The notes beneath the pieces were generated by a model. That model searched no databases and was not told the origin of the DNA. It saw nothing but the letters and a program-made list of their open reading frames with translations. A stretch of DNA of 64,000 nucleotides from a phage. The DNA lies in sequence record OZ413489.1. One strand, 5' to 3'. Positions 34,467 to 56,165 of this stretch are shown one piece after another; the first letter of the stretch is position 1; each line of letters begins with the position of its first letter. The position numbers and the translations under genes are program-made.

Positions 34467-36896
34467 ATGAGCATGTGGTCGTTCGACTTTGAGTCATCCG
34501 GTTTGCTGGAAGACCCAGATCTTTATTATCACTGCGGCCTGTTTAAAGAGCTGAATAAGAACCGTTTTATGCTGTTCCTTCCTCTAAATGACCGCACACA
34601 CTACTCCGAGGAGGATATAGAAAAGGCTAAGAACTTCATTCTGGCAAAGAAAACTCTTTATAAAGATTTTGAAGTTCGCATAGCAGATTTTTCAGAGTTG
34701 GAAGGTTGGCTTACAGGAAATTCTGACTGGTCACCAACAGCTTTGAACTGCCATAACTGCTACAGTTATGACTTTATGCTGATGGAAAGATTATCTGGTA
34801 TTCATTTTGATATGTTCCGTGATCCTAAATGTATGGGGACTATCAACGATCACCAGGTTAACCTGTTTGATACGTTGGCGATGAGCCGAATCTTGTGGCC
34901 TGATCGCCCTTTACCAAAAGGTTGTCCGGACTCTGTATTCAACCCGGTTACTAAGAAAATGCAGCCTGTTGGTCCTCACGGCCTTATGGCATGGGGCTAC
35001 GCCCTTGGTAACCAGAAAGTTCAAATTGATGACTGGCGCGATCTTCCGTTGTGGAAGTATGTGGATCGTGTATTCGAGGACGTTATCATCCAGGAGCTGC
35101 TCTGGAAAGAGCTGGTAGCGGAATCAAAAGGTGTATTCTACGGCAAATCTGACATGCAGAACTTTATGTACGATCCGGCCAAAGAGAAGCCGAAAGGGTT
35201 CAAGAAGATCACCTGGAAGAACGCATTACGTCGAGGCATGCTGCAGCACTTCCTGATGGAGCTGCAGGCCCGTCAGGGTGTATACTTCGACATAGATGGA
35301 GCTATTGCTTTACGTGACCGTTGCGATGCGTGGATGAAAGAAATCGCTGATCGTGTTGAACCACAACTACCTTTAAAAGAGCTGTCAATGTCTCAGCGGC
35401 CCAAGTTCCCTGAAAAGCCGTTTAACCAAGACGGGACAATCTCTAATAATGGTTGGAAATGGTTAAAAGATAAGCTTGGCTATCCTGTAGACATGAGTGC
35501 TTTAGAGTTCAAAGCCCTGCCTAAGCGAGCATTTACCTCTACAGGAGATGTCAGCAAGATGGGGATAAAATGGTGTGAAGAGATGGGCTGCAAAGACCCC
35601 GATAAGATGGCTGATTTCTTGAGAGGCTATATTAAGGGCACCTCCACACCACAACCCTTACCTAAAGAGCTGATGGATCAGGCAATAAGTGATCTGCAGC
35701 AGAAGCGAATGCCTGACTGCAAGATACCTATGAAAATCAGCAATCAGGACGACATCAAGCGATACCTAATCAGTGCTGGTTGGCTCCCAACAATGTGGAG
35801 AACTAAAGATGTAACTAAAGACAGCAAGAAGAAAGCTTTACCTGATGCAGATGTTGATGCACGAGTATATGCATATATGGACGAGCTTTTGGAGTCAGAG
35901 TATTGTGACCTAATTATCAACTTCTGGAACAAAACTGATGCTAAGTTCCAGACAACCGTGCACAAGTTCCGAAGCTTTCCTAACTCCGAAAGGATTAAAA
36001 AGGAAGTATTCGGGAAAATACGTAGAAAAGCCAGGGCACTTATTACTTCTCCGCAACTGAAAGATACGTTTGGACACCTATGCCCAAATCTTGAAAAATT
36101 GAACGGAGAGATGGCTAAAGATATCGTCTTGTGGTTATCATTGCGAAACCGCAGATCGGTCCTTGATCCAATCAAGGAGGATAAGGTTGATACTGGTCTT
36201 CTTAATCACCCACGTTTGAAGATTGACCATAAGCTTCCTGCTAAAAGCTCTGGATTAACAAACACTTCCAGACAGAAACACAGTATTTGTGCAAACATGC
36301 CTAAACCATCTCCTAAAGTAGTTATGGGTAAAGAGATGCGTAGTCTGTGGGGTGTTCCTCCAGGATACTTTGAGATCGGTATTGACGGGTCCAACTTAGA
36401 GCAGCTCATCGGGGCTTGGGGTGCCTTTGAGTTCGACAACGGCTTGTATTATGATGTTGTAAGTAACGGAGACGCACACCAAAACAATGCTGAGGCATAT
36501 ACAAAAGTGGCAGGCAGAGAGGTGTCCCGTAACGACGGTAAACCTATCACGTATGGGGTTATGTACGGGGCACAAAAAGATAAAGTTGCAGATATGCTGG
36601 ACATCTCCCCAGAGTTGGGACAAAGGGTAATCGATGCACTCTGGGATGCCAACCCAGGTCTTAAGGGGCGCAAAGAGGATCTGGAGAAATTCTGGGAAGC
36701 AACAGGTAAGAAGTTTATCTACTCTTTTGATGGTCATGCTATCTGGACCCGATCTAAACACTCTTTACTTAATGCATACCAACAAAATGGCGGTGCATCG
36801 TTGTGTGACTTAGTTGGAATACTCATGCACCACCAGATGGTGAAGCGTGGGTGGTACGATGAAGGTGTTCGTCGTATTATTTATTACCATAAATAA
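34467..36896 (+). CDS. Family A DNA polymerase
   Basis: 809 aa; RBS aaggagaac; exonuclease-like segment (LFDTLAMSR); palm motifs DGSNLEQL (motif A-like) and KPITYGVMYG (motif B-like). Confidence 0.8.
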   Translation: MSMWSFDFESSGLLEDPDLYYHCGLFKELNKNRFMLFLPLNDRTHYSEEDIEKAKNFILAKKTLYKDFEVRIADFSELEGWLTGNSDWSPTALNCHNCYSYDFMLMERLSGIHFDMFRDPKCMGTINDHQVNLFDTLAMSRILWPDRPLPKGCPDSVFNPVTKKMQPVGPHGLMAWGYALGNQKVQIDDWRDLPLWKYVDRVFEDVIIQELLWKELVAESKGVFYGKSDMQNFMYDPAKEKPKGFKKITWKNALRRGMLQHFLMELQARQGVYFDIDGAIALRDRCDAWMKEIADRVEPQLPLKELSMSQRPKFPEKPFNQDGTISNNGWKWLKDKLGYPVDMSALEFKALPKRAFTSTGDVSKMGIKWCEEMGCKDPDKMADFLRGYIKGTSTPQPLPKELMDQAISDLQQKRMPDCKIPMKISNQDDIKRYLISAGWLPTMWRTKDVTKDSKKKALPDADVDARVYAYMDELLESEYCDLIINFWNKTDAKFQTTVHKFRSFPNSERIKKEVFGKIRRKARALITSPQLKDTFGHLCPNLEKLNGEMAKDIVLWLSLRNRRSVLDPIKEDKVDTGLLNHPRLKIDHKLPAKSSGLTNTSRQKHSICANMPKPSPKVVMGKEMRSLWGVPPGYFEIGIDGSNLEQLIGAWGAFEFDNGLYYDVVSNGDAHQNNAEAYTKVAGREVSRNDGKPITYGVMYGAQKDKVADMLDISPELGQRVIDALWDANPGLKGRKEDLEKFWEATGKKFIYSFDGHAIWTRSKHSLLNAYQQNGGASLCDLVGILMHHQMVKRGWYDEGVRRIIYYHK

Positions 36897-37163
36897 CATT
36901 GTGGCTTCATAGAGTAATCTATGTCGAATAACCTCTTTAACTGCGGGAAGCCTAAACCTTATGGCAAGGTAATCCGCAACGAAGCGCTCAAAAGAGCGAA
37001 CGCTCAGAGGCCATTCCGAAAGGAAGTAGACCAGCAAGTGCGGTCGAAATGGGAGGATTCCTGTGGTTGCTTATCATAGGAATATGAGATGGTCCGATCC
37101 TACGTGAAAACGTATGGCTATGCACGTAATGGTGCGGGGTAGCTTAACGACCTACCTGAACTA

Positions 37164-45528: not shown

Positions 45529-45718
45529 GCTTAAATCCGCATGGAGCATTGCTGTGGGTGATGAGATCCGTATCCCCGGTGGGAAGACCATTATGAAGAT
45601 ATCTCGTATTGAGTACGAAGGTGACCGTGTATTCCACATCTTCGCAGAAGATGGTCGAGAAATTTATATACAGGCAGGTTCTCACATTTATATCCGTAAG
45701 AAAGGGGACGACAAATGA
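45512..45718 (+). CDS. Hypothetical small protein
   Basis: 68 aa; overlaps neighbours at both ends. Confidence 0.4.
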   Translation: MVLMFKLKSAWSIAVGDEIRIPGGKTIMKISRIEYEGDRVFHIFAEDGREIYIQAGSHIYIRKKGDDK

Positions 45719-46044
45719 CAGAAATCATCATTTCAACTGCAGGGTATGTGTTCCTGACAATCATTGCACTGACTATTTTGGTGACAGTGTATGGGTTTGT
45801 TATCCTTCCTATCCTTGAGACATTTAGTTTGTGTCGGTGTTGGAGAAAAGCTTACGGTCCACAACCATGGAAGGACTGGCCCCACCTGGTGCGCTTAGCG
45901 TTCTCTTATGCTTACGATCACTCCAGTAGTGCATGCATAACCGGATACCACGCCCACAACTGGAGCTGGGAAGGGTTGAGGAAATGGAATGTTACAAAGA
46001 CCATACCTCTGCGCATGTACAAACCTAAAAACAAAGACAACTGA
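45715..46044 (+). CDS. Membrane protein
   Basis: 109 aa; N-terminal hydrophobic helix (GYVFLTIIALTILVTVYGFVILPIL). Confidence 0.5.
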   Translation: MTEIIISTAGYVFLTIIALTILVTVYGFVILPILETFSLCRCWRKAYGPQPWKDWPHLVRLAFSYAYDHSSSACITGYHAHNWSWEGLRKWNVTKTIPLRMYKPKNKDN

Positions 46045-46079
46045 TACTTGAAAATTCTTGGCATATCAAGTATAAGGGG

Positions 46080-46560
46080 GATTTCTAAAATGGATTTCCT
46101 CCTTTTGATATTTCACCGGGCCGGATATTTTAAAATTCTTAGAAAATCAGAAAATGGATCGAAAACTAAAATGGATTTTTCAGAGTAGGCGCGACAAGCT
46201 GAATAACTCATCCTATCGTTTGCACCATATTCCAGGCCACCATTATAGATTTCCCACACATGCTAACCTCCCTCTACTAGAACTTCCTCCACTTACCCTT
46301 GACCTTCTATGGTAACAATCTAACCGCTATCTTGAAGTTGCTGTGCAGCTTTCCAGGTACTCGATCTACTTTTCATTTCAGGGCTTGGATTTTCTGAAAA
46401 TTTTTCTCGATAAATTTCTCAGTACTCGATCTGTTTTTCGTTTTCTGAATCGGATTTTCTGGAAATCGTTCCGGCTCTCGACCTGAAATTTTTGGGGACG
46501 AAATCGATTTTTCGTTTTCAGAAATGGATTTTTAAAATTTCTATATGGGAATATTTTATG
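46080..46560. repeat. Iteron-rich AT-rich non-coding region (candidate origin / protein-binding array)
   Basis: Repeated words: aaaatggat(t/c) x4, gtactcgatct x2, ggattttctg(a/g)aaat x2, tttcgttttc x2; no convincing ORF. Confidence 0.5.
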
Positions 46561-46646
46561 GGATACTGTTTTATAGGAAATTGTTACGGAGGGTAATTAG
46601 CGTGCTAATTAAATTTATTAAATGCGAGGAGTTCTCATTTAGAATT

Positions 46647-46665
46647 TTGAATGATAATCATTCTC
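46647..46665. promoter_or_regulatory. Fur-box-like operator, copy A
   Basis: ttgAATGATAATCATTcTC: 15/19 to the Fur consensus GATAATGATAATCATTATC (15/16 over the core). Confidence 0.5.
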
Positions 46666-46677
46666 GTTTGCAGAATA

Positions 46678-46722
46678 ACGGGCAGGCCCGGTGATTGTCT
46701 CCCGGCCCCTACTGCCCCGGCT
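46678..46722 (+). other. Conserved hairpin element, copy A (core ggcaggcccggtgattgtctccc)
   Basis: GGGCAG-GCCCGG-loop-CCGGCCC-CTGCCC hairpin followed by ttgttatt; the 23-nt core recurs at 46822 and, inverted, at 54121. Confidence 0.4.
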
Positions 46723-46782
46723 TGTTATTATAGTATCACACAGGACAAAGAAAGCAAGGATTTTTTGCATAAATTTTTAAAT

Positions 46783-46801
46783 GATAATGATAACCGTTCT
46801 C
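46783..46801. promoter_or_regulatory. Fur-box-like operator, copy B
   Basis: GATAATGATAAcCgTTcTC: 16/19 to the Fur consensus; TTGCAT lies 16 bp upstream. Confidence 0.5.
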
Positions 46802-46807
46802 ATTTTA

Positions 46808-46858
46808 TGCAGCGCCCATCCCCGGTGGTTGTCTCCCCCGTCACCGGTGCCTGCCGTC
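46808..46858 (+). other. Conserved hairpin element, copy B (core ccggtggttgtctccc)
   Basis: CCGGTG...CACCGG stem around the loop gttgtctccccc; same core motif as copy A. Confidence 0.4.
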
Positions 46859-47060
46859 CTTTCGATAGGTATATCGTGCCACCTGGCGGGGCCGCTGTCA
46901 ACACTTTTCAAAAAATTTTTCTAACCTGATGCGCTAACCGCTGCAACCTGGCGGGGTCAGCCTGGCAGGACCTAACTGACCGGGTAGGAGAGAATGAAGG
47001 CTTGTAAACCTGGTGGGCCTATGCTACAGGATAGGTAACAATTGAAGAGGAGGTACAAAA

Positions 47061-47228
47061 ATGAAAGGTAATATGATCCCCCTAGAAAATGTAGCTATTA
47101 ATGACGCTGAGGCTATCGCCCTGGTTGAAAAGGCTATGGCGGGAGCGTTGGAACATAAAGAAGAGTACGAAAAATGGTGGTTAACCTGGCGGGGGCGGCA
47201 GGTGGATTCTATCATAAAAATAATTTAA
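47061..47228 (+). CDS. Small hypothetical protein (55 aa)
   Basis: Strong RBS gaagaggaggt, 7 nt before the ATG; not in the >=60 aa track. Confidence 0.45.
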   Translation: MKGNMIPLENVAINDAEAIALVEKAMAGALEHKEEYEKWWLTWRGRQVDSIIKII

Positions 47229-47235
47229 AATAGTC

Positions 47236-47265
47236 GTTGACAACAAGGTTAATCATGGTATTATT
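47236..47265 (+). promoter_or_regulatory. sigma70-type promoter
   Basis: TTGACA-17 bp-ATTATT (or TATTAT at an 18-bp spacer). Confidence 0.5.
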
Positions 47266-47314
47266 ACCCTACAAGGTGAACAACACCGCACTAACCAGTA
47301 AAGAGGATAAATTT

Positions 47315-47512
47315 ATGAACGCATACGGGATCAAAGTACGTCGCAACACTCGCCAGGTGGTCACCAATCAAGTGATTTGCCGGGTGGATGTAACCATCAA
47401 CAACGGGCAAGGCCTTTATAAATTTCGTCGCGGTCATAGCTATACCCTGCAACAGCTTAATCGTTGCGCCCTGACAAAAGGTCAGATCAACCATTGGTTT
47501 AATAAAAAATAA
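47315..47512 (+). CDS. Hypothetical small basic protein
   Basis: Track ORF 47237-47512 begins inside the promoter; ATG at 47315 with RBS aaagaggat. Confidence 0.45.
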   Translation: MNAYGIKVRRNTRQVVTNQVICRVDVTINNGQGLYKFRRGHSYTLQQLNRCALTKGQINHWFNKK

Positions 47513-47515
47513 GTA

Positions 47516-47544
47516 TTGACATACAGTCCGACACCAAATACACT
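47516..47544 (+). promoter_or_regulatory. sigma70-type promoter
   Basis: TTGACA-17 bp-TACACT. Confidence 0.5.
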
Positions 47545-47576
47545 AAAAGCACAAAAGACACTAAGAGGATAAAATC

Positions 47577-47975
47577 ATGAAAACCACTACCTTTAATTTT
47601 GATAATGCAGACTTTTCTTTTTCTGATGTCAAGAACTGCCGCCGTGATCGTGGATTTTACAAGGCTTATAATCTGGTGGGCCTGGACGATGACAATAATT
47701 TGCACGAAGTAGCTGAGATCCGGTATTATGCCGCCGCCAGCGGTAACACTAACTACTGCGTTTTTTGGATACACGACAACAAGAACAATAAGTACGGTTA
47801 TACTGGTGGCAAGGCTAGCGGTCACGGTTATGATAAAGCCAACGCTGCACTTGAAAGCGCATTAAATGCCATGGGAATCACTGCCGACGGCTGGATCTAT
47901 GAAGAAGAGTTTTTGGCGGCACTTGCTGCCCACCTGGGCTATAAAAAGCACATTGTAACATGCGCCCACGAATAA
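47577..47975 (+). CDS. Hypothetical protein
   Basis: 132 aa; RBS taagaggat. Confidence 0.5.
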   Translation: MKTTTFNFDNADFSFSDVKNCRRDRGFYKAYNLVGLDDDNNLHEVAEIRYYAAASGNTNYCVFWIHDNKNNKYGYTGGKASGHGYDKANAALESALNAMGITADGWIYEEEFLAALAAHLGYKKHIVTCAHE

Positions 47976-47986
47976 AAAAAAAATTA

Positions 47987-48014
47987 TTGACACGCTGCAA
48001 AATTCAAGTAAACT
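47987..48014 (+). promoter_or_regulatory. sigma70-type promoter
   Basis: TTGACA-16 bp-TAAACT, followed by a 5'-UTR hairpin. Confidence 0.5.
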
Positions 48015-48024
48015 AGGCACAAAA

Positions 48025-48043
48025 GGCGGGAATGTTTCCCGCC
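48025..48043 (+). promoter_or_regulatory. 5'-UTR stem-loop
   Basis: ggcggg-aatgttt-cccgcc between the promoter and the RBS of 48063. Confidence 0.45.
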
Positions 48044-48062
48044 AACACGAAGGAAAAAGATC

Positions 48063-48458
48063 ATGAATAAAAACGTACGCCGCATCATGAACGAACTGGC
48101 AAACGATGAAAAAATTATTGATATGCATTTGGTCAACATTTGCCGCCGTTGTGTAACATATAACAACCGCGCCGCAAAAGCGCGTGAGATGAACGCAAAA
48201 GGCACCTTAAAGCCCTTTCAGGTGGTTGTAAAATCTATGACCAGTGCAGCAGGCCAGGCGCATGACCACAACAACGGGAGCACTAATATTGATCCATCTT
48301 ACGTAATGAAACGGATCCGGACTTGCAAGAATAAAGAGCAGGTGTATAACGTCATAGATTGGCTGGACTCCCTGGGTGACGTGGTTTACAATAGGTTTTC
48401 TGCAGCTATTGAAATTCAGTTAGACAGGTTGGACGGGAAAGTACTGAAAACTTACTGA
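48063..48458 (+). CDS. Hypothetical protein
   Basis: 131 aa; RBS aaggaaaaag. Confidence 0.5.
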   Translation: MNKNVRRIMNELANDEKIIDMHLVNICRRCVTYNNRAAKAREMNAKGTLKPFQVVVKSMTSAAGQAHDHNNGSTNIDPSYVMKRIRTCKNKEQVYNVIDWLDSLGDVVYNRFSAAIEIQLDRLDGKVLKTY

Positions 48459-48460
48459 GT

Positions 48461-48506
48461 TTATTTTTAGATGGCCTTGACTCCAGGGCCATCAATAAAG
48501 TAAACT
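48461..48506 (+). promoter_or_regulatory. Repeated 46-bp promoter/palindrome element, copy 1
   Basis: ttatttttaGATGGCCttgactccaGGGCCATCaataaagtaaact: a TTGACT -35 inside an inverted repeat, TAAACT at -10 spacing; near-identical copies at 49089 and 52803. Confidence 0.5.
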
Positions 48507-48538
48507 AATCCCAGTTAAGCGAAAAAGGAGGCTTGAAG

Positions 48539-48658
48539 ATGAGCACTACACGCCAGCACACAAAGGTAACTATTATCGTTTGCATCATTGGTTATATCCT
48601 GGCGCAAATGTTGATGGGTAGCGCTAACGGTGTCGCAAAATTTTTCTTAAACTTTTAA
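48539..48658 (+). CDS. Small hydrophobic peptide (39 aa)
   Basis: RBS aaaggagg, 8 nt before the ATG; one predicted TM helix (TIIVCIIGYILAQMLMG). Confidence 0.45.
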   Translation: MSTTRQHTKVTIIVCIIGYILAQMLMGSANGVAKFFLNF

Positions 48659-48686
48659 TTGACAAGCTAACTTAGATCAGTATACT
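48659..48686 (+). promoter_or_regulatory. sigma70-type promoter
   Basis: TTGACA-16 bp-TATACT. Confidence 0.55.
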
Positions 48687-48698
48687 AAACACATAAAC

Positions 48699-48711
48699 GG
48701 GAAAACTTCCC
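48699..48711 (+). promoter_or_regulatory. 5'-UTR stem-loop
   Basis: ggg-aaaactt-ccc between the promoter and RBS aaaggagaaaac. Confidence 0.4.
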
Positions 48712-48735
48712 AGAACACCAAAAGGAGAAAACATT

Positions 48736-49086
48736 ATGAATACTTCCATCACTATGACCGCCGAAGAAAAAGCCCTGCAGATCGCCGCTCTGAAAAAACA
48801 GATTGCAGAACTTGAAGACAAGATCGACAATTTTGAAATCGACGAAGACAAATACGACGATAAATATGATGAATGGTTGGACGAGATCTACGGCGAAATT
48901 ATGATCGGAAACATTTCTTTTCTTCCGTCGCGTATCCTCAAGGAGCTAGATCCTATCGCTTACCGCTGCGGATTTAGCGACTACATCGACAGCCTGGATA
49001 TTGAGGACGATGAAGAATACCAGGAATTGCAGACAGAGCTTGAAGAAGTGAAAGAAGAGCTTGCAGAACTGGAAGAAAACGAGTAA
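48736..49086 (+). CDS. Hypothetical acidic coiled-coil protein
   Basis: 116 aa; heptad-like N and C termini; very acidic. Confidence 0.5.
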   Translation: MNTSITMTAEEKALQIAALKKQIAELEDKIDNFEIDEDKYDDKYDEWLDEIYGEIMIGNISFLPSRILKELDPIAYRCGFSDYIDSLDIEDDEEYQELQTELEEVKEELAELEENE

Positions 49087-49088
49087 GA

Positions 49089-49134
49089 TTATTTTTAGAT
49101 GGCCTTGACTCCAGGGCCATCAATAAAGTAAACT
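49089..49134 (+). promoter_or_regulatory. Repeated 46-bp promoter/palindrome element, copy 2
   Basis: Identical core to copy 1, directly after the stop at 49086. Confidence 0.5.
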
Positions 49135-49175
49135 TTATACTGTTAACACTGAACTAATGCATAGGAGTTAAAACC

Positions 49176-49421
49176 ATGGCAGCACTAATCACCAAATATT
49201 ATGCCCCTACCAACACCAAAAGCGCCCGTATCATGGTAAAAGGCTTCGGACGTAAAAAGGTTTACACTTGGGATTATTCCCTAGACATGGAAGACAACTA
49301 CACCAACGCGATGACCGATTTTATTAATGAACTAAATAAGCAGATCTTAACCAATTATAAGGTGACCGACATCGCCTATGTTGGGGAAGGTGGGATCTGT
49401 TTTGTCGGTATTGTCAAATAA
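49176..49421 (+). CDS. Hypothetical protein
   Basis: 81 aa; RBS ataggagtt. Confidence 0.5.
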   Translation: MAALITKYYAPTNTKSARIMVKGFGRKKVYTWDYSLDMEDNYTNAMTDFINELNKQILTNYKVTDIAYVGEGGICFVGIVK

Positions 49422-49496
49422 GCTGTTTTTTCGGTGGTCCTGGTGGCAGGGCCATCTATAAAGATAGTTTATTAACACCATGAAAGGAGAAAGTAC

Positions 49497-49850
49497 ATGA
49501 TCAGCGGGGCTAGTTTTATTATTGGCGCTATTGCTACAGCTTTAATTGTAAACAAGATCCAGGATAAAAAGGAAAGAGGAAGTACCGCCCTTGCAGAATA
49601 TCCATTTTGGACATTCAACGATAACGAAGATTATATTATAAAGTATAAAAATAAAGAAGGTGACCAAGTAACACCGCGACCGATCCCGGCTTACAAGATG
49701 CAGGAAACACTATACCGCTTGGAGGCAGGGGGCGCAAAAATTGTGGACTTTTGGGGATACGATCACACAGATCAGGAAGTTATAAAGCGCCGTATCCGGG
49801 CTATTCAGGCCAATATTGAAGTTAGCAAGGGGGGAATATATGAAGATTAA
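49497..49850 (+). CDS. Hypothetical protein with N-terminal hydrophobic segment
   Basis: 117 aa; RBS aaaggagaaag; N-terminal TM-like helix. Confidence 0.5.
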   Translation: MISGASFIIGAIATALIVNKIQDKKERGSTALAEYPFWTFNDNEDYIIKYKNKEGDQVTPRPIPAYKMQETLYRLEAGGAKIVDFWGYDHTDQEVIKRRIRAIQANIEVSKGGIYED

Positions 49851-50037
49851 TTTTGAGAAAATTGTAAAGCGATCTCATGATTCCGAAGAGCTGCCGGAAC
49901 GCCGCCAGCGTAACAATAAACTGAATAAGCCAAAAAGATTTGGGAAGATCTGGCGGAATCATTATGATCGTAAATTGCCGGGCCTCCTTTTGGAACGTGA
50001 ACGGCAGGCGGAACGATACCGCCACAAAGGCAACTAA
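49840..50037 (+). CDS. Hypothetical small basic protein
   Basis: Track ORF from 49816; ATG at 49840 after RBS aagggggg. Confidence 0.4.
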   Translation: MKINFEKIVKRSHDSEELPERRQRNNKLNKPKRFGKIWRNHYDRKLPGLLLERERQAERYRHKGN

Positions 50038-50044
50038 CAACCAA

Positions 50045-50073
50045 CGCCCCGCCATCGTGCGGGGCTTTTTATT
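50045..50073 (+). terminator. Rho-independent terminator
   Basis: gccccgc-catcgt-gcggggc + tttttattt. Confidence 0.75.
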
Positions 50074-50195
50074 TCTACCCTACGAATAGCGCCCCTGGTT
50101 GGCCCCACAACGCCCTAAAAGCCCCCTACCCATGCAATCCCATTTCTTAACCTGAAAACATCGTCAAAGGCTGTTTTAAAGCGTTAAAAATATTG

Positions 50196-50223
50196 TTGAC
50201 ATCTAAAATATTCTAGATATACT
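50196..50223 (+). promoter_or_regulatory. sigma70-type promoter
   Basis: TTGACA-16 bp-TATACT. Confidence 0.55.
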
Positions 50224-50258
50224 AATCACATCAAAGCGAGAAGTAAGGAGTAAACGCC

Positions 50259-50519
50259 ATGCGTAAATTAAAAAATTTTGATAAAGTTGATATTGTCCTG
50301 AATAATTTTTACTACTGCAATAACAAGGCCGTTTGGTGGCGTGATAGTTCCACCGATAAAGTCAAGGCGCGCTTTCTCCAGGGGCACTGGCAAGGCCGCC
50401 CAGTGATTAAAATCATGGGGCAATTGGTAGCGTTTAAAAATTGCCGCCGTGTTGATGACGTTGAAGAGATTTTAAACATTTTGCGCCACAATAATTTAAA
50501 AAATAGTGTTGACAAGTAA
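50259..50519 (+). CDS. Hypothetical protein
   Basis: 86 aa; RBS taaggagtaaac. Confidence 0.5.
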   Translation: MRKLKNFDKVDIVLNNFYYCNNKAVWWRDSSTDKVKARFLQGHWQGRPVIKIMGQLVAFKNCRRVDDVEEILNILRHNNLKNSVDK

Positions 50520-50536
50520 ATCTCAATAAGTATAAT
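50509..50536 (+). promoter_or_regulatory. sigma70-type promoter
   Basis: TTGACA-16 bp-TATAAT overlapping the stop of 50259-50519. Confidence 0.6.
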
Positions 50537-50546
50537 TAAAAACACA

Positions 50547-50565
50547 GGCGGGAAAACTTCCCGCC
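50547..50565 (+). promoter_or_regulatory. 5'-UTR stem-loop
   Basis: ggcggg-aaaactt-cccgcc, then RBS acaggagaaaat. Confidence 0.45.
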
Positions 50566-50593
50566 ACTAACAAAGAAAACAGGAGAAAATATC

Positions 50594-51217
50594 ATGACCA
50601 CCGTTAACATTACCACAGGTTACAATTTATCTTTCGACGTGCTGACCGACGAACAAAAAGAAAAAGCCGTGGAAATGGTCCGCGAAAGAGAAGAACACAG
50701 CGGGGATAACTTTTTTGCAGAAAGTGTAATTGAGTACTATAAAGAATATGTTTTTCCAGAGTACGGCCTTGAAGATACCGATGTACATTGGTCAGGCTTT
50801 TGGTGCCAGGGTGACGGCGCGTCAATCAGTGCGGAAAACGTGGATTTAGAAAAATTCTTGCGTAAAGTCAAGTCTCTGACTAAATTCCGCTCAATTCGTC
50901 ACTTGTTCGGCACAATGCACGATGGCGAGTTATCCGCAAGTGTTGAGCGTGATCCATATAGCCGCTATAGTCACGAAAACACTGTAAACGGATACATCGA
51001 TACTACATGGCTAGACCTGACCACCAAACAAGAAAACAAAGTGGAAGATCTGGAAGAGCTGATCACCGAGACGGTACGGGAGTTATCCCGCAAGGTTTAC
51101 GTAGACCTGGAGGAGGCCTATCTTGAACAATTCACCGCCGAAAACTTGATCGGCCTTATCGAGGCCAATGATTGGCGGTTTGATGTCGATGAACACGGTA
51201 AGATGACTTTTTCATAA
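50594..51217 (+). CDS. Hypothetical protein
   Basis: 207 aa. Confidence 0.55.
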   Translation: MTTVNITTGYNLSFDVLTDEQKEKAVEMVREREEHSGDNFFAESVIEYYKEYVFPEYGLEDTDVHWSGFWCQGDGASISAENVDLEKFLRKVKSLTKFRSIRHLFGTMHDGELSASVERDPYSRYSHENTVNGYIDTTWLDLTTKQENKVEDLEELITETVRELSRKVYVDLEEAYLEQFTAENLIGLIEANDWRFDVDEHGKMTFS

Positions 51218-51225
51218 ATAAAGTG

Positions 51226-51253
51226 TTGCAATAACCTAAAAACCTGCTATATT
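51226..51253 (+). promoter_or_regulatory. sigma70-type promoter
   Basis: TTGCAA-16 bp-TATATT, followed by a 5'-UTR hairpin. Confidence 0.45.
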
Positions 51254-51262
51254 AAAACTCAA

Positions 51263-51281
51263 GGGGCAAGACGTTTGCCCC
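51263..51281 (+). promoter_or_regulatory. 5'-UTR stem-loop
   Basis: ggggcaa-gacgt-ttgcccc, then RBS aaagaggtaaac. Confidence 0.45.
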
Positions 51282-51305
51282 ACACAAAACAAAGAGGTAA
51301 ACATT

Positions 51306-51686
51306 ATGAAAAACACTACTAAAGCTATTGACACCGTTATGTTTAACCTGGTTACATTCCGTGAAGATATGAAAGATCTTCCACGTGAAACAGTGTGCGA
51401 TCACATTGAAAACTATCGCAAACTAATCAAAGAGTTGCCTTTAAAACGTGACCAGTATGCGGCTAACGCTATGCTTAACGCCATGATCAAAAAGATGATT
51501 CAGTGTGATTTAACTCTGGCCTATGATTATGCAGGTGGTCGTTTTGCAGTATACAATCAGCCCGTGCCTGGTATGAGCACCACCGAAGAATTGCACGCGT
51601 TAAATCTGAAACAAGATGTATGGGATAACATGCCCCGCGTGGTGGTGTGGGCAGAAAGCGGAAAGATTTACGGCGATAATTTTTAA
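51306..51686 (+). CDS. Hypothetical protein
   Basis: 126 aa. Confidence 0.5.
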   Translation: MKNTTKAIDTVMFNLVTFREDMKDLPRETVCDHIENYRKLIKELPLKRDQYAANAMLNAMIKKMIQCDLTLAYDYAGGRFAVYNQPVPGMSTTEELHALNLKQDVWDNMPRVVVWAESGKIYGDNF

Positions 51687-51696
51687 TCAGGTAACA

Positions 51697-51722
51697 GGCG
51701 GCATATTTGCCGCCTTATTGTT
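51697..51722 (+). terminator. Rho-independent terminator
   Basis: ggcggc-atattt-gccgcc + ttattg. Confidence 0.55.
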
Positions 51723-51750
51723 AAACAGAACTGCAAAAGAGGTACATAGA

Positions 51751-52122
51751 ATGGAATTTATTATTTTGGCTGTAGTAGTTGCCTTGTTCAACGCCTGGAT
51801 CGCTGGCAAGATAGGTAGATCCGCTTTTCTATGGTTTGTTATATCTATTTTCCTGGGAGTGGTTGCAACTATTGTATTGGTTATCCTTGCAATTGTTGAC
51901 AAGGGCGATAATAGAAAGGGTAAAGTGTTTTCCGACCTGTATGACGCACAAACGTTTGTCAACGCCTATTATAGTGATCTTCCAGTCTCCCTACGCTGCA
52001 GCCTGGCACAACAGGTTTTTGATGAGGCTAAAACCAGAGACCAAGCCCATGAGATATGTTTAACTGAAGCGGATCGCCTATTTGAGAGGAATAGAAAATA
52101 TGTGGACCAGCCGTTTAAATAA
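51751..52122 (+). CDS. Membrane protein (two predicted TM helices)
   Basis: Track ORF from 51616 overlaps the upstream gene and terminator; ATG at 51751 follows RBS aaaagaggtac; begins MEFIILAVVVALFNAWIAG. Confidence 0.5.
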   Translation: MEFIILAVVVALFNAWIAGKIGRSAFLWFVISIFLGVVATIVLVILAIVDKGDNRKGKVFSDLYDAQTFVNAYYSDLPVSLRCSLAQQVFDEAKTRDQAHEICLTEADRLFERNRKYVDQPFK

Positions 52123-52321
52123 CGCCACGTTAATTAATCCCTTTAGTGAAGATTTGAAGCCAGCCGCCTGGCGTGACGGATTCAATAACGAACGCTTTAT
52201 TTTCAGGCCTGATCTTGAGGAATTTTATAACAATGGATCGAACAACAGCGGAGATAATTTTTCTTGTGGTGTGCGTGGTGATAGGACTCCTGGGGGCCAT
52301 TGTAAACCACGTCACTACTAA
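52100..52321 (+). CDS. Hypothetical small protein (uncertain frame)
   Basis: ATG with RBS gagaggaa; overlaps an alternative-frame peptide (52233-52358) that has a clear TM helix, so one of the two is probably spurious. Confidence 0.3.
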   Translation: MWTSRLNNATLINPFSEDLKPAAWRDGFNNERFIFRPDLEEFYNNGSNNSGDNFSCGVRGDRTPGGHCKPRHY

Positions 52322-52341
52322 CAGGAGGGAAGGGGGAGACG

Positions 52342-52461
52342 ATGACAACCAAAGATAAGCCATGCGCTGATAAGGTGCGCCGTGTTATGGTATGGCTTGA
52401 GATTATCGCCCTTGAAATATTGTTAGGCGTAGGGATGTACTTTATCGCTGTAAGTAACTAA
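52342..52461 (+). CDS. Small hydrophobic peptide (39 aa)
   Basis: RBS gggggaga before the ATG; TM helix VMVWLEIIALEILLGVGMYFIAV; terminator follows. Confidence 0.45.
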   Translation: MTTKDKPCADKVRRVMVWLEIIALEILLGVGMYFIAVSN

Positions 52462-52463
52462 GA

Positions 52464-52496
52464 GCGGCCCCCGATCATGGGGGCCTATCTTTTAAA
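52464..52496 (+). terminator. Rho-independent terminator
   Basis: ggccccc-gatcat-gggggcc + tatcttttaaaaaattttt. Confidence 0.65.
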
Positions 52497-52515
52497 AAAT
52501 TTTTCTTCCGGGGTG

Positions 52516-52544
52516 TTGCAATCCGGTCCGGAATGTGGATAATA
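52516..52544 (+). promoter_or_regulatory. sigma70-type promoter
   Basis: TTGCAA-17 bp-ATAATA; the -10 region contains TGTGGATAA. Confidence 0.5.
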
Positions 52545-52599
52545 ACAATCAACGGGGAGCTAATCCCCACCACCACAAAAACCAGAAAGGAGAAACAAA

Positions 52600-52800
52600 A
52601 TGAGCAACAATATCCGCGTTATTAACTTCAAAAAAGAAGAAAAAATTGCCGTGCTGATTGACGGTCAAGAAATCTTCAAGGGCGACTATGAAGATCATCA
52701 AACGGCGATTAGTATCACTCGCGTGATTGGTTATCATAATTTCTACCCCCAAGGCGCTGAGGCAGCAGTTAAACGAATCAAAGAGATTGTAGGCCTGTAA
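52600..52800 (+). CDS. Hypothetical small protein
   Basis: 66 aa; RBS aaaggagaaac. Confidence 0.5.
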   Translation: MSNNIRVINFKKEEKIAVLIDGQEIFKGDYEDHQTAISITRVIGYHNFYPQGAEAAVKRIKEIVGL

Positions 52801-52802
52801 AA

Positions 52803-52848
52803 TTTATTTTTAGATGGCCTTGACTTCAGGGCCATCGATAAAGTAAAT
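52803..52848 (+). promoter_or_regulatory. Repeated 46-bp promoter/palindrome element, copy 3
   Basis: aatttatttttagatggccttgacttcagggccatcgataaagtaaatt; two substitutions relative to copies 1 and 2. Confidence 0.5.
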
Positions 52849-52893
52849 TTAAACCCTGTTAAAATACCACGCAGTTAACAAGGAGTGATAGAC

Positions 52894-53193
52894 ATGTTTA
52901 TCCAGGCTAATAATCTTTATTTCTTTGATGGTCAGATCGTAGATGGTGTGGAAGTGGAGATCACCGGGTGCCCTGGCGGTCAGGCTATGACTTTTCGGAA
53001 TAATGCCTTTGATGATTCTCATATCGTTATAAGAATGGAAGTTACGAAGCTGGACGACAAGAAAACACTTATTGACTATTCTGTGAAAGATCATCCAGAC
53101 TACCGCATGATCCATGGTGATTTGTGCATTGTTGACCGTGACAAGGTGGGCGGCATTGTGATCGCTATTGTGAACGATGTTTTCTCAAACTAA
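52894..53193 (+). CDS. Hypothetical protein
   Basis: Track ORF from 52885; in-frame ATG about 9 nt in, after RBS aacaaggagtg. Confidence 0.5.
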   Translation: MFIQANNLYFFDGQIVDGVEVEITGCPGGQAMTFRNNAFDDSHIVIRMEVTKLDDKKTLIDYSVKDHPDYRMIHGDLCIVDRDKVGGIVIAIVNDVFSN

Positions 53194-53210
53194 TTTCAGC
53201 AGGCGATTTT

Positions 53211-53561
53211 ATGAAAGTCAAACTATATTACCTTAATGAGCTTAACCCCCTTGCCCAGGTCCGCGCCCTAGCTAATACCTTGATTTGTGAGAAATCTGTA
53301 TATTGTGTTGAGCTTAACGCCATGCGTGAACGTCTCAAAGGTGGTTACTTTGACATCCATGCTGCAATCAACGGCCTGAATATGGAATTTATACGCTTAC
53401 GTAACAGCCGCCGGAATCTGGCAAGAATGGAACAAGATCCGGCCCACCTTCGTAAACTGGTTATTGAAAATCATCTGATGTTTAATGCCGAGGGGGATTA
53501 TTACCATTTTCACCGCAAACGCTGGTACCGTGGCGGCAATACAGGCAAGAATGCAAAATAA
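53211..53561 (+). CDS. Hypothetical basic protein
   Basis: 116 aa ORF. Confidence 0.5.
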   Translation: MKVKLYYLNELNPLAQVRALANTLICEKSVYCVELNAMRERLKGGYFDIHAAINGLNMEFIRLRNSRRNLARMEQDPAHLRKLVIENHLMFNAEGDYYHFHRKRWYRGGNTGKNAK

Positions 53562-53597
53562 GGCCCCTAGCAGGGCCTGCAGCAATATAATCACATA

Positions 53598-53631
53598 AAG
53601 GCCATGCGGTTGCATGGCCTTTATTATTTTG
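53598..53631 (+). terminator. Rho-independent terminator
   Basis: aaaggccatgc-ggtt-gcatggccttt + attatttt. Confidence 0.7.
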
Positions 53632-53678
53632 GCGTTACAACGGCATACGGGGCGCTTAAAAAATTTTTAAAGAAGTAC

Positions 53679-53707
53679 TTGCATCATTCCCGACAATATG
53701 GATAATA
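53679..53707 (+). promoter_or_regulatory. sigma70-type promoter
   Basis: TTGCAT-17 bp-ATAATA; same -10 context (tgGATAATAa) as the promoter at 52516. Confidence 0.5.
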
Positions 53708-53770
53708 AGAGTTGTCGAGGGGGAGGCCCCCAATCGTTGACCAGATAGATAGGAGTTAAAATCATGGCTA

Positions 53771-54034
53771 TTGTTACCGCTGGCTATCTTCAAAGATGCG
53801 GAAGCAAAACAACGCCGGATCTCAATACATGAGATCATCAACCTTAACGCTGGAGGCACACCATACCGCCCAGGACCTGGCCGTGAGATGGACAATACGC
53901 TAGCGATCCTGAAGATACGCCGTAAACGGTCCTCCCTTACTCTGGACTCATTACACACAATGCAGCCTCCGTTCCAGGTGACCGGGAAACGGATCGCCAG
54001 GTCCTGGACAAAGGCCAATGATCGGACCGTATAA
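53771..54034 (+). CDS. Possible gene with aberrant start (candidate frameshifted gene or non-coding transcript)
   Basis: 87-codon ORF with only a TTG start; a well-placed RBS (taggagttaaaatc) precedes an ATG at about 53764 in another frame that stops after 22 codons. Confidence 0.25.
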   Translation: MLPLAIFKDAEAKQRRISIHEIINLNAGGTPYRPGPGREMDNTLAILKIRRKRSSLTLDSLHTMQPPFQVTGKRIARSWTKANDRTV

Positions 54035-54120
54035 ATAAAAGTGTTTTGGTACTGATTTTGGGGTTGACTTGTTCGGCCCCTTTTGCTATTCTTATTAAAC
54101 GGGCGGCACTTGGGAACAGG

Positions 54121-54143
54121 GGGAGACAATCACCGGGCCTGCC
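54121..54143 (-). other. Conserved hairpin-core motif, copy C (inverted)
   Basis: Minus-strand ggcaggcccggtgattgtctccc, identical over 23 nt to copy A at 46681. Confidence 0.4.
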
Positions 54144-54168
54144 TGTCATATAAGAACTATAAAAACCG

Positions 54169-54197
54169 TTGACATCTGCCATGGGGTGGGGTAACAT
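54169..54197 (+). promoter_or_regulatory. sigma70-type promoter
   Basis: TTGACA-17 bp-TAACAT upstream of 54252. Confidence 0.45.
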
Positions 54198-54251
54198 TTA
54201 TCTTGAAGGGGCAAAAGTGCCCACACAACAACCAAGAGAGAGGAAAACACT

Positions 54252-54524
54252 ATGTCAAACTGGATTAATCAAGAAGTCGAATCACGTTTTAATGCTATTT
54301 GGGATCTCATCGAAAAAGAAGACGGCACATCAAGCCCCTACCTCAACAATTTGGAATTCCATTTTGTGGAAGCGATGAACGCAGAACATGATCACGAAGG
54401 TGGCGCGGATGAGTTCGCTAAAGGTTATGGCTTTAACAATGCCAACGAAATGATCGAGGCGGTAGTACTCCAGGCTGAGGAAGATTATCAACTAAAAACG
54501 CTTGAATTCTGCCGCCGCAAGTAA
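54252..54524 (+). CDS. Hypothetical acidic protein
   Basis: 90 aa; RBS agagagaggaaaac. Confidence 0.5.
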   Translation: MSNWINQEVESRFNAIWDLIEKEDGTSSPYLNNLEFHFVEAMNAEHDHEGGADEFAKGYGFNNANEMIEAVVLQAEEDYQLKTLEFCRRK

Positions 54525-54530
54525 TAAGAT
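54502..54530 (+). promoter_or_regulatory. sigma70-type promoter
   Basis: TTGAAT-17 bp-TAAGAT at the end of the upstream gene; a 5'-UTR hairpin gggccaaaaggccc (about 54539-54552) follows. Confidence 0.45.
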
Positions 54531-54584
54531 AATGACACGGGCCAAAAGGCCCACTAATCAGAACCGCACAAAGAGGTAAACATC

Positions 54585-54848
54585 ATGAAACGTCTTGATC
54601 AGCTCAAATTAGTTCAATATATGGCTTATCGTGTTCTTGAAGTCCAGAAAGGTAGCAAAAAAGAGGTTTGCGAGAAAGCTTATAAGATCTTCACTCGCAA
54701 AAAAGATGACTGGATGCTACGCCAGACTAAAAAGGCTGACATCTTGGGGTACCTGGAAGAAGAGATCCGCCTTGAAGAGCAAGAAGAGATCCGCCGTAGT
54801 GAGGCAGATTATCAGGCAGCTTGGGAAAACTGGATGAGCAACAAATAA
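54585..54848 (+). CDS. Hypothetical protein
   Basis: 87 aa; RBS aaagaggtaaac; last plus-strand gene before the non-coding region. Confidence 0.5.
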   Translation: MKRLDQLKLVQYMAYRVLEVQKGSKKEVCEKAYKIFTRKKDDWMLRQTKKADILGYLEEEIRLEEQEEIRRSEADYQAAWENWMSNK

Positions 54849-54867
54849 TACAACAAGGTGCACGGTC

Positions 54868-54893
54868 AGGGGCTTAAAGCCCCTTTCTTTTTG
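54868..54893 (+). terminator. Rho-independent terminator
   Basis: aggggc-ttaa-agcccct + ttctttttgtct. Confidence 0.75.
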
Positions 54894-55770
54894 TCTCCTC
54901 TTTTCCTACCACAAATGGCCCCGCCTGGCAAATGGAATAATCAACAAGCCAGCAATTAACCCCACTGTACAAACATACATATAAAATAACTATTGCATAA
55001 TTTTTCATTGTGTGGTAGCAGTGCCATTTTTACACGTTTTTCCTTCCAAAATTGCACGTAATGCAGCATTTGCACAAAATTTAACCTGATGCATATCTTC
55101 AATAGCTTGTCAACAACTAAAAATCTTTATAAGTCATACACTTACATAACTACAAAAACGTTTTCTACGTGAAAAATCGAGTATAACTATAGCCGCCAGA
55201 TCTCAGAATTTACGTACGCTCGCCATTCTATAGCCTGCTAAGCATTTATTCCAACCATAGAATAACGGAATAGTCAATACCTGCATAAAATAATTATTCG
55301 TGTAAACTGCATAACATAAATCGGCCCAGGTGTCAACATTTTTCGTAAACAGTCTGGAATTGTCACGTTAGGTTACCATAAGCAGAGAAATCTTTAGTCG
55401 TCTAATGTTTACTGTACATTACTATACTGACTGGAATCATTAGATGACTAAGAGAAAGATAAGAAATAATTAATAATGTAATTATTTTACCTGTAACAAT
55501 AAGGCAACTATGCAAACGAATGGCATGGCGCGACGGAGTCGCGACATAATATAAAAGCAGTAACCATCACCCCCGTGATAGTTTGTCTGCAAACTATTAA
55601 TCAGATCATAGTTGCCTTGTATTTAGTTAATCATGACATGACAAGCAAGGCAACTATAGATCTGCTAATAGTTGCCCTGCTTTTATATTATGTCATGCTA
55701 ATTATAATCAGTGCGATTATTGTCATGTATAATTATTGTCATGCAAACGAATGGCATGGCTGATTATCGG

Positions 55771-55860
55771 TGTGTAAACAGTCAATCATGTAAATGGTTA
55801 GCATGTGAACAATCAGGAATGTAAACAATCCAGTGTGTAAACTAATAGGTGTGTAAAAGT
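55771..55860. repeat. TGTAAAC-type iteron cluster
   Basis: gtgtaaaca, atgtaaatg, atgtaaaca, gtgtaaact, gtgtaaaag within about 90 bp. Confidence 0.45.
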
Positions 55861-56001
55861 GTCATGTTGTGTCAGTTAGGTCACATTATGTCAGACAAGT
55901 TTTTCTCCTCTTTGTCAAGTGCTGCATGAAAAATTTACAAGCTTGTATGGTAGCATTTTTGCGGCCCTGTTTACATTCAGTAATGTATGTATAATCCTTG
56001 T

Positions 56002-56165
56002 TGTGTGGGCGTTTAGACGTCTAGACGGTTGGAAGTCCACAGGTCAATATCTAATCTATCGGCTGCTAACTATATCCCACACATGTGTGGGCGTTTAGAC
56101 GTCTAGACGGTTGGAAGTCCACAGGTCAATATCTAATCTATCGGCTGCTAACTATATCCCACACA
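56002..56165. repeat. Perfect tandem duplication, 2 x 82 bp
   Basis: The unit tgtgtgggcgtttagacgtctagacggttggaagtccacaggtcaatatctaatctatcggctgctaactatatcccaca occurs twice head-to-tail with no mismatch seen; each copy contains the palindrome TAGACGTCTA; the junction forms CCCACACATGTGTGGG. Confidence 0.8.

Follow-up and report, generated by a model that had tools for sequence, protein, structure and literature searches.

Results

A repeat array in a gene-free gap of an rV5-like phage

The window, i.e. the whole stretch of 64,000 nucleotides analysed here, contains a gap of 1016 bp (46045-47060) that carries a repeat array and no consistently called gene; the small ORFs annotated within it differ from record to record. 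An upstream ORF (45715-46044) ends directly before the gap, and the neighbours are small + strand genes whose functions remain unassigned after inspection of the ORF list and Pfam and PHROGs scans. The original prediction of about 480 bp without a credible ORF holds with respect to coding potential (+ strand ORFs reach at most 53 aa) but understated the size of the gene-free gap. A 55-aa ORF right after the gap (47061-47228) shows frame-breaking indels among relatives (21 gapped columns) and is possibly not a gene; without it, the non-coding region would reach the promoter at 47237. In the annotation tables of Escherichia phage EdH4, the only gaps noticed that measure 0.5 kb or more are the array gap and that of the terminal region at ~55-57 kb, and the two divergent-transcription junctions of this phage measure only ~80-120 bp each.

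The region 45700-47300 matches 122 phage records. As the best match is EdH4 (98.5% local identity), the window is assigned by sequence to a Vequintavirus, an rV5-like myophage with a genome of ~136 kb. The phage encodes a T7-gp4-like primase-helicase (32330-34408) and a DNA polymerase whose intron-interrupted gene starts at 34467. The group I intron (36881-37116, Rfam RF00028, 64.7 bits) starts shortly upstream of the stop codon of the DNA polymerase ORF (34467-36896, 809 aa); in EdH4 the polymerase is annotated as a single continuous CDS.

The repeats exceed chance and are specific to the locus

A check of the sequence located the predicted repeats within 46080-46560. Four copies of the 9-mer AAAATGGAT had been proposed; this number is correct for the 8-mer AAATGGAT, which has a fourth copy at 46522, but the 9-mer itself occurs only three times (46087, 46151 and 46168). 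The other repeats are present twice each, GTACTCGATCT at 46357 and 46422, GGATTTTCTG(A/G)AAAT at 46387 and 46452, and TTTCGTTTTC at 46436 and 46510. A repeat search shows that these motifs form parts of three tandem units of 65-74 bp with 70-74% identity (46347-46393, 46412-46458 and 46486-46532). We observed 22 repeated 9-mers compared to 1.8 ± 1.9 expected from 1000 dinucleotide shuffles, none of which reached the observed number, and the outcome is unchanged for k = 7, 8 and 10. The excess of repeats is not due to chance. Within the 64-kb window only the stretch at ~55.4-56.2 kb is more repetitive than the array.

In the EdH4 genome (136,031 bp) the array holds both copies of GTACTCGATCT and of TTTTCGTTTTC, four of the nine copies of AAATGGAT and four of the seven copies of TTTTCWGRAA. 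Among relatives there is one such locus per genome, and apparent matches at a second place proved to be off-register BLAST self-matches of the tandem units. A search of 5,426 E. coli genomes for satellites or plasmids with the same repeats revealed none, the sole "plasmid" match being a whole phage genome. This record (CP057073.1), a 137.6-kb "non-mobilizable plasmid" from an E. coli culture of pooled cattle faeces, contains the array at 92.9% identity and appears to be a whole Vequintavirus genome assembled together with its host. When the degenerate core pattern of the B units described below was searched in IMG/VR, mostly single chance matches were obtained, and the loci with multiple matches were Vequintavirinae-like fragments.

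The description of the locus as an AT-rich island applies moderately to the repeat blocks (GC 0.33-0.39) and fully to 46500-46650, where GC in 100-bp windows is 0.26-0.29 and lies below the window's 1st percentile, but not to the spacer at 46200-46350, which lies at the genome average (0.44-0.46). In the second repeat block (block B), the AA/TT periodicity of 11 bp ranks at the 99th percentile, with many periods tested, and suggests bent DNA.

Architecture of the gap

Directly 3' of the stop codon of the upstream gene lies an 11-bp inverted repeat (46041-46076) that can form a hairpin and is not followed by a T-run. Block A (46082-46180), almost invariant in Vequintavirus, comprises AAATGGAT at 46088, 46152 and 46169 and GATATTT at 46107 and 46124; it matches, in order, the blocks of GATATTTG (three copies, 12-bp spacing) and AAATGGTTTTC (two to four copies) of other genera. 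The variable spacer V (46181-46355) is the least conserved segment, with 1-2-nt indels and no conserved ORF. Unit B1 (46354-46418) is composed of the core GTACTCGATCT (46357-46367), TTTTC and a 6-1-6 palindrome, ATTTTC-T-GAAAAT (46389-46401), and carries TCGATAAATT at 46407, an exact match to the H-NS high-affinity consensus. Unit B2 (46419-46485) has the same core (46422-46432), followed by TTTTCGTTTTC and the near-palindrome ATTTTCTGGAAAT (46454-46466), and unit B3 (46486-46545) consists of the degenerate core GACGAAATCGAT, TTTTCGTTTTC (46509-46519) and GTTTTCAGAAATGGATTTTT. The AT-richest stretch of this part of the genome (46500-46650) lies between the B units and a Fur-box-like palindrome and is a candidate DNA-unwinding element.

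Several promoter-like sites are found to the right of the array. A weak leftward site on the - strand (46580-46608, TTAGCA-17-AACAAT, 8/12), read by eye, would be aimed into B3; better counterparts occur in other genera, for example TTGACA-18-TG-GAAAAT in Seunavirus. A rightward site on the + strand (46647-46676, TTGAAT-18-CAGAAT), whose spacer is formed by the Fur-box-like palindrome GATAATCATTCTC (46653-46665), is kept in all genera examined. It is followed on the + strand by a conserved element, GGGCAGGCCCGGTGATTGTCTCC (46680-46702), which recurs at 46824-46836 and, inverted, at 54122-54134, and is the only part of the gap that blastn finds in other genera. A second leftward site (46730-46757, - strand, TTGCTT-16-(TG)-TACTAT) scores 7/12 plus an extended -10 and is below the scan threshold; in position it matches a site conserved in six other genera (TTGxxx-16/17-TATATT/TATTAT), the spacer of which is variable in sequence and fixed in length. 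The second Fur-box-like unit (46773-46900, + strand) contains GATAACCGTTCTC at 46789-46801. As phage AlexBoehm has only one of these units, the other being deleted, the presence of both copies is not essential. Finally, the downstream gene block begins with a canonical sigma-70 promoter (47237-47264, + strand, TTGACA-16-(TG)-TATTAT), which carries a promoter annotation in rV5 and has TTGACG-17-TACTAT/TATTAT as its equivalent in other genera. In these other genera, three leftward promoter-like sites conserved in position are aimed into the array. A leftward site there faces the rightward Fur-box-overlapping one, so that the 5' ends of the two transcripts would overlap.

The composite of promoter-like site and overlapping Fur-box-like palindrome (GATAATCATTCTC in the window, GAGAATCATTCTC in other genera), followed by the conserved element GGCAGGCCCGGTGATTGTCTCC, occurs three times in the window (46647-46702, 46780-46836 and, on the minus strand, 54105-54150) compared to 0.16 copies expected. 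The third copy is inverted and has its own -10-like TATATG. These composites may represent a family of small RNAs, possibly regulated by iron.

The repeat blocks are constrained within Vequintavirus

For the analysis of constraint within the genus, the window was aligned with eight Vequintavirus relatives and the mean pairwise difference was calculated per block. The upstream gene shows a difference of 0.103, with substitutions chiefly at third codon positions, and the central spacer (46181-46355) one of 0.282. The values are 0.059 for block A (46082-46180), 0.042 for the B units (46356-46545; 91% invariant columns) and 0.010-0.025 for the two Fur-box-like units. Within Vequintavirus the variation of the two repeat blocks is therefore 2-7 times lower than that of the gene and spacer next to them, and they are evidently under purifying selection. 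At least 80% of the array is kept in all 117 matching Vequintavirus records.

The order of elements is conserved across genera

Outside the genus, blastn detects only 46609-46766, i.e. the Fur-box-like palindrome and the sequence after it. We compared the homologous gaps of six phages from Phapecoctavirus, Certrevirus, Seunavirus (two phages), Mydovirus and Henunavirus, all of which have a gap of 0.8-1.3 kb with few or no annotated genes at the corresponding place. In the five Vequintavirinae phages among them (Certrevirus, both Seunavirus, Mydovirus and, in diverged form, Henunavirus) the order of elements is the same as in the window: GATATTT(G) repeats, AAATGG(A/T)TTT repeats, three B units, the AT-rich stretch and the Fur-box-like palindrome. 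The series begins with GATATTTG repeats (at least three copies at 12-13-bp spacing in GAP31, Mydo and KaOmega, fewer in the others) and continues with AAATGGTTTTC repeats, for which there are one or two exact matches, more by eye and none in Certrevirus. At the position of spacer V, one to three copies of TATCTCAA are present except in two phages, Certrevirus and the second Seunavirus. Three units spaced 63-78 bp apart follow, GGGTWCTCGATCGnTTTTTC..CGTATTTT..GAAAAAATTTTT, with a diverged core in Henunavirus, and the series ends with the AT-rich stretch and the palindrome GAGAATCATTCTC. Across genera the core of the B units reads GGKWCTCGATC..TTTTTC. Phapecoctavirus has kept the gap, the TATCTCAA repeats and the palindrome, but its long repeats are different and the CTCGATC core is absent. 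Conservation of the repeats in related genomes thus extends from the 117 Vequintavirus records to other genera, and the original prediction passes the conservation check that had been proposed with it.

None of the 15 ORFs flanking the gap in the window gave a tblastn match (E ≤ 0.01) within 2.5 kb on either side of the gaps of other genera. Conservation of the non-coding element therefore exceeds that of the genes surrounding it. Vequintavirus lacks a homologue of the ~275-aa protein that other genera encode next to the gap. In Henunavirus and one Seunavirus, a gene for an HNH homing endonuclease is located directly upstream of the conserved gap (L013 1426-1992; L014 1393-1980).

The array marks a boundary between two composition domains

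All genes between the array and the left end of the genome are transcribed toward that end. In this terminal block (47061-54950) the GC content at four-fold sites is 0.47-0.49, compared to 0.28-0.41 in every other 4-kb bin and ~0.33 in the rest of the genome, and the coding-strand GC skew at these sites is -0.19, compared to +0.06 to +0.08 left of the gap. The rise in four-fold-site GC across the gap recurs in five of the six other genera, though the genes differ. Based on this recurrence the array is a conserved boundary of two domains. The terminal block may represent an immediate-early, host-adapted class of genes; scans of 12 of its ORFs against Pfam and PHROGs yielded no annotated function, T5 pre-early or otherwise.

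The genome end lies in a second non-coding region

The terminal redundancy of EdH4 has been reported as 458 bp (Korf et al., PMC6563267), and in the record the first 459 bp are identical to the last 459 bp. This repeat maps to ~55894-56434 of the window, and in EdH4 the B units lie 11.7-11.9 kb (8.6-8.7% of the genome) from the left physical end. In Klebsiella phage KPP-1 a terminal repeat of 514 bp has been defined from sequence coverage and PhageTerm. It is located at 116,316-116,829 in the homologous convergent non-coding region, and the B units are ~8.5-9 kb away from it (9.0-9.1 kb, or 6.3%, from the corresponding edge).

In the window this second large non-coding region spans ~54950-57050, where two transcription units converge. 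It includes the terminal repeat, the stretch of lowest GC in the window (55381-55520), GTGTGTAAAC and CTCTTCAGG repeats, further Fur-box-like sequences and a perfect 82-bp tandem duplication (56002-56165), which according to the BLAST offset is apparently present as one copy in EdH4. GATATTT(G) occurs here at 56385, 56538, 56703 and 56718; together with 46107 and 46124, six of the ten + strand copies in the window thus fall into the two non-coding regions, so a single protein may recognise both.

Breaks inside the array gap occur in four public records, namely EC152 (PP681140.1), R7, phiWec189 and ETEC-TG. Enterobacter phage EC152 ends inside the B1 core and lacks the 8 nt TACTCGAT relative to GAP31. 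The records of Salmonella phage R7 and of phiWec189 start in the B3 tail and in the second Fur-box-like unit, respectively, and that of ETEC-TG apparently in the spacer region, as inferred from match coordinates. Because the positions differ, the breaks look like an effect of assembly and not like a defined end. They could reflect unusual read coverage at the gap.

Candidate functions tested and rejected

A protein-coding repeat or small gene was rejected based on unit periods of 63-78 bp that are not multiples of 3, inconsistent annotations and frame-breaking indels. A 17-aa micro-ORF on the minus strand, although preceded by a strong ribosome-binding site, is truncated or lost in relatives. 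Rfam searches of the gap in the window and of those in six other phages gave nothing meaningful at gathering or permissive thresholds (E ≤ 10), and a tRNA/tmRNA scan of the window gave no match. The fold stability of the blocks relative to shuffles ranges from z = -2.3 to +1.6, which we took as not significant (DNA fold, z = -1.1), and RNAalifold found a single compensatory pair in the region after the Fur-box-like palindrome.

We also discarded a tandem cluster of sigma-70 promoters, as no site is present on either strand of 46080-46560 and the B-unit consensus has no -35/-10 pair at 16-18 bp spacing. Perfect DnaA boxes (TTWTNCACA) are absent from the gap in the window, and none is conserved in position across 8 genomes, which argues against a DnaA-box cluster; boxes with one mismatch occur at 4 per kb in the gap compared to a background of 2.7 per kb. 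The Fis consensus is absent from the B units. GATC (Dam) sites are enriched in four genera, but clustering of these sites is not a defining feature, with only two in block B of the window and none in Hena1. The array is not the genome terminus, as the 459-bp terminal repeat lies elsewhere. Pfam and PHROGs scans of the neighbours, of the surroundings of the primase-helicase and of those of the gaps in other genera revealed no initiator-like protein; around the primase-helicase and the other genera's gaps only families without assigned function and HNH endonucleases were matched.

Discussion

Uniqueness to the locus, a constraint exceeding that of the neighbouring gene and an order kept across genera strongly support the view that the array is a cis-acting platform for the binding of protein at multiple sites, as the original prediction had proposed in its more general form. 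For its more specific form, a replication origin, the picture is mixed: the anatomy fits, but the claim is unproven, with no conserved DnaA boxes, no initiator found nearby and no origin indicated by the proposed skew check, since the published GC/AT-skew analysis of rV5 shows only transcription-linked changes and no inflection at this locus (PMC3606486). Our best single guess, ranked first and held tentatively, is nevertheless that the array may be the replication origin, or one of the origins, of rV5-type phages. The ranking follows from the anatomy, in which phased repeats lead to an AT-rich stretch and flanking promoters.

Clustered direct repeats at one locus with an adjoining AT-rich stretch count in favour of an origin, as do the promoter-like sites that flank this stretch at conserved positions and are aimed into the array in other genera, and the fact that, of the gaps noticed in the EdH4 annotation tables, only this one and that of the terminal region reach 0.5 kb. 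On the other side, the coding-strand GC skew at four-fold sites is lower on the right of the gap than on its left, the reverse of what a simple leading-strand model predicts for a bidirectional origin, and the gene layout implies that a fork from the array would meet transcription head-on over most of the genome. In the window's own genus the leftward promoter-like sites score below threshold, and the injection stop region of T5 is equally origin-like. Iterons, an AT-rich element and a nearby promoter make up the anatomy of lambda ori, the iteron origins of plasmids, the primary origin of T7 and T4 oriE, oriF and oriG. In a working model of initiation, a conserved protein of the phage or its host would bind the helically phased repeats in block A as well as the three composite B units, and bend the array DNA. 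The adjoining 150-bp AT-rich stretch (46500-46650) would then melt, aided by transcription from the promoters on its right side, of which the Fur-box-overlapping one would fire away from the stretch and the leftward promoter-like sites into it. Primase-helicase (32330-34408) and DNA polymerase (from 34467) could then load.

A somewhat unlikely explanation is transcriptional control. Here the repeats would bind a regulator or roadblock protein that parts the upstream replication-gene unit from the terminal block, and would regulate or halt transcription arising from the promoter cluster at 46580-47264, the Fur-box-like promoters among them. The position of the array exactly at the conserved shift in synonymous-site composition fits two expression classes, a canonical sigma-70 promoter is found within 100-700 bp of it, as are Fur-box-overlapping promoter-like sites, and the palindromes of the B units resemble the sites of dimeric regulators. 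In addition, the leftward promoter-like sites of other genera run antisense into the array, and transcription from them would need to be stopped before the upstream genes. However, the repeats overlap no promoter-like hexamers and the B units are devoid of a Fis consensus. Four motif families over ~480 bp are far beyond the needs of known operators, and regulator sites tend to diverge between genera, whereas the array persists where flanking genes do not. The same leftward sites, conserved in position, could instead produce one or more non-coding RNAs or a long leader encoded by the array, a reading that we consider improbable. The + strand RNA of block B is slightly more stably folded than its shuffles (z = -2.3), but the minus-strand RNA, which these promoters would produce, is no more structured than shuffles (z = +0.3 for block B and +1.5 for block A), and no Rfam family is matched even at E ≤ 10. 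Moreover, the perfect 6-1-6 palindrome is unable to form a hairpin, and the inverted A/T tracts are 1 nt apart here and ~8 nt apart in other genera, pointing to a feature of the DNA and not of an RNA.

The T5 injection stop region provides a further explanation, which is unlikely: the first-entering ~9-12 kb would pause, be held or be set apart, such that the terminal block of small genes is expressed first. In T5 this region is ~1.2-1.7 kb of untranslated sequence at 7.9% from the left end, with an order of repeats that is the same in almost all relatives, and it is more conserved than nearby ORFs; despite its origin-like appearance it is not regarded as an origin. The left end of the EdH4 genome has been located, and the B units lie at 8.6-8.7% from it, and in KPP-1 at 6.3% from the corresponding edge of the terminal repeat, compared to 7.9% for the T5 signal. 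The T5 region is likewise untranslated and contains repeats and palindromes, and its pattern of conservation is the one seen in the array. The stretch from the array to the end has a composition found nowhere else in the genome, with a step that recurs in five of six other genera, and the promoter-like sites are all on the end-proximal side of the array. Against this, the terminal repeat measures 459 bp and not ~10 kb, the paired DnaA boxes typical of the T5 region are absent, and 12 ORFs of the terminal block gave no annotated function with Pfam and PHROGs profiles. Two-step transfer is known only from T5-like siphoviruses and from no myovirus. By analogy it is rather unlikely, though conceivable, that Vequintavirinae, with their contractile tails, follow a T5-like two-stage infection in which the left 9-12 kb, i.e. 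small unassigned genes with host-like synonymous-site composition, would enter first and the array would act in cis as a stop or checkpoint holding back the rest. A packaging or terminus signal, with pac- or cos-like repeats bound by terminase, is very improbable. Three repeated units beside a cleavage site would resemble lambda cosB, in which repeated units lie next to the cleavage site, and the four records broken inside the gap might be taken to indicate such a site. Each of these breaks is at a different position, so that together they define no end, and the terminal repeat is ~9-12 kb away in both genera in which it has been determined.

Phages of the rV5 type are isolated in many places, serve in the typing of E. 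coli O157 and have been considered for therapy. Literature searches on an origin or non-coding region in these phages returned nothing beyond the skew analysis in the rV5 genome paper, which failed to locate an origin, and the genome map therein shows an unnamed "non-coding" box (PMC3606486). The present analysis singles out one non-coding element whose conservation exceeds that of the surrounding genes, and provides its exact motifs and boundaries. EdH4 can be edited using Cas13a counter-selection (PMC9712115), so that three questions become directly addressable: the site at which replication begins, a possible staging of the entry or expression of the terminal block, and the identity of the protein that recognises the repeats. 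The array also illustrates that origin-like repeat arrays are not diagnostic of origins, as the T5 injection stop region looks alike.

Comparison with known systems

Like the T5 injection stop (Repeat Region 3 in the left terminal repeat), the array gap comprises ~1 kb of untranslated DNA located ~8% of the genome length from the left end; in both, conservation exceeds that of the small ORFs nearby, and a block of small genes without assigned function borders on the region. In T5, however, the 10-kb terminal repeat contains the stop region, whereas here the terminal repeat of 459 bp is 9-12 kb away from the array, and the paired DnaA boxes of T5 have no conserved counterpart in the array gap. 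T5 is a siphovirus with demonstrated two-step transfer, while the likeness of Vequintavirus is one of sequence position and conservation.

With the primary origin of T7 and with T4 oriF and oriG, the array shares an intergenic location between co-oriented gene classes and promoters beside an AT-rich segment, and the phage shares with T7 a T7-gp4-like primase-helicase. The distance from the genome end is 6-9% of the length for the array compared to ~15% for the T7 origin. The T7 and T4 origins need only a promoter and an AT-rich or unwinding element and lack the elaborate repeats of the array, the promoters of which are consensus matches only and weak in the window's genus.

The iteron-type origins, i.e. 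lambda ori, those of the plasmids P1, R6K and RK2, and T4 oriE, differ from the array in that there is no sequence similarity and in that the array has no recognised initiator gene overlapping or adjoining it, four motif families instead of one and units of 63-78 bp. As in the array, however, they contain short direct repeats, partly helically phased and each with dyad symmetry inside it, phased A/T tracts suggestive of a bend, an adjoining AT-rich stretch and close promoters, all at one locus per genome. With no earlier description found in the literature searched, the array is, judged by its sequence features, best filed as a sequence-unrelated addition to the iteron-type cis elements.
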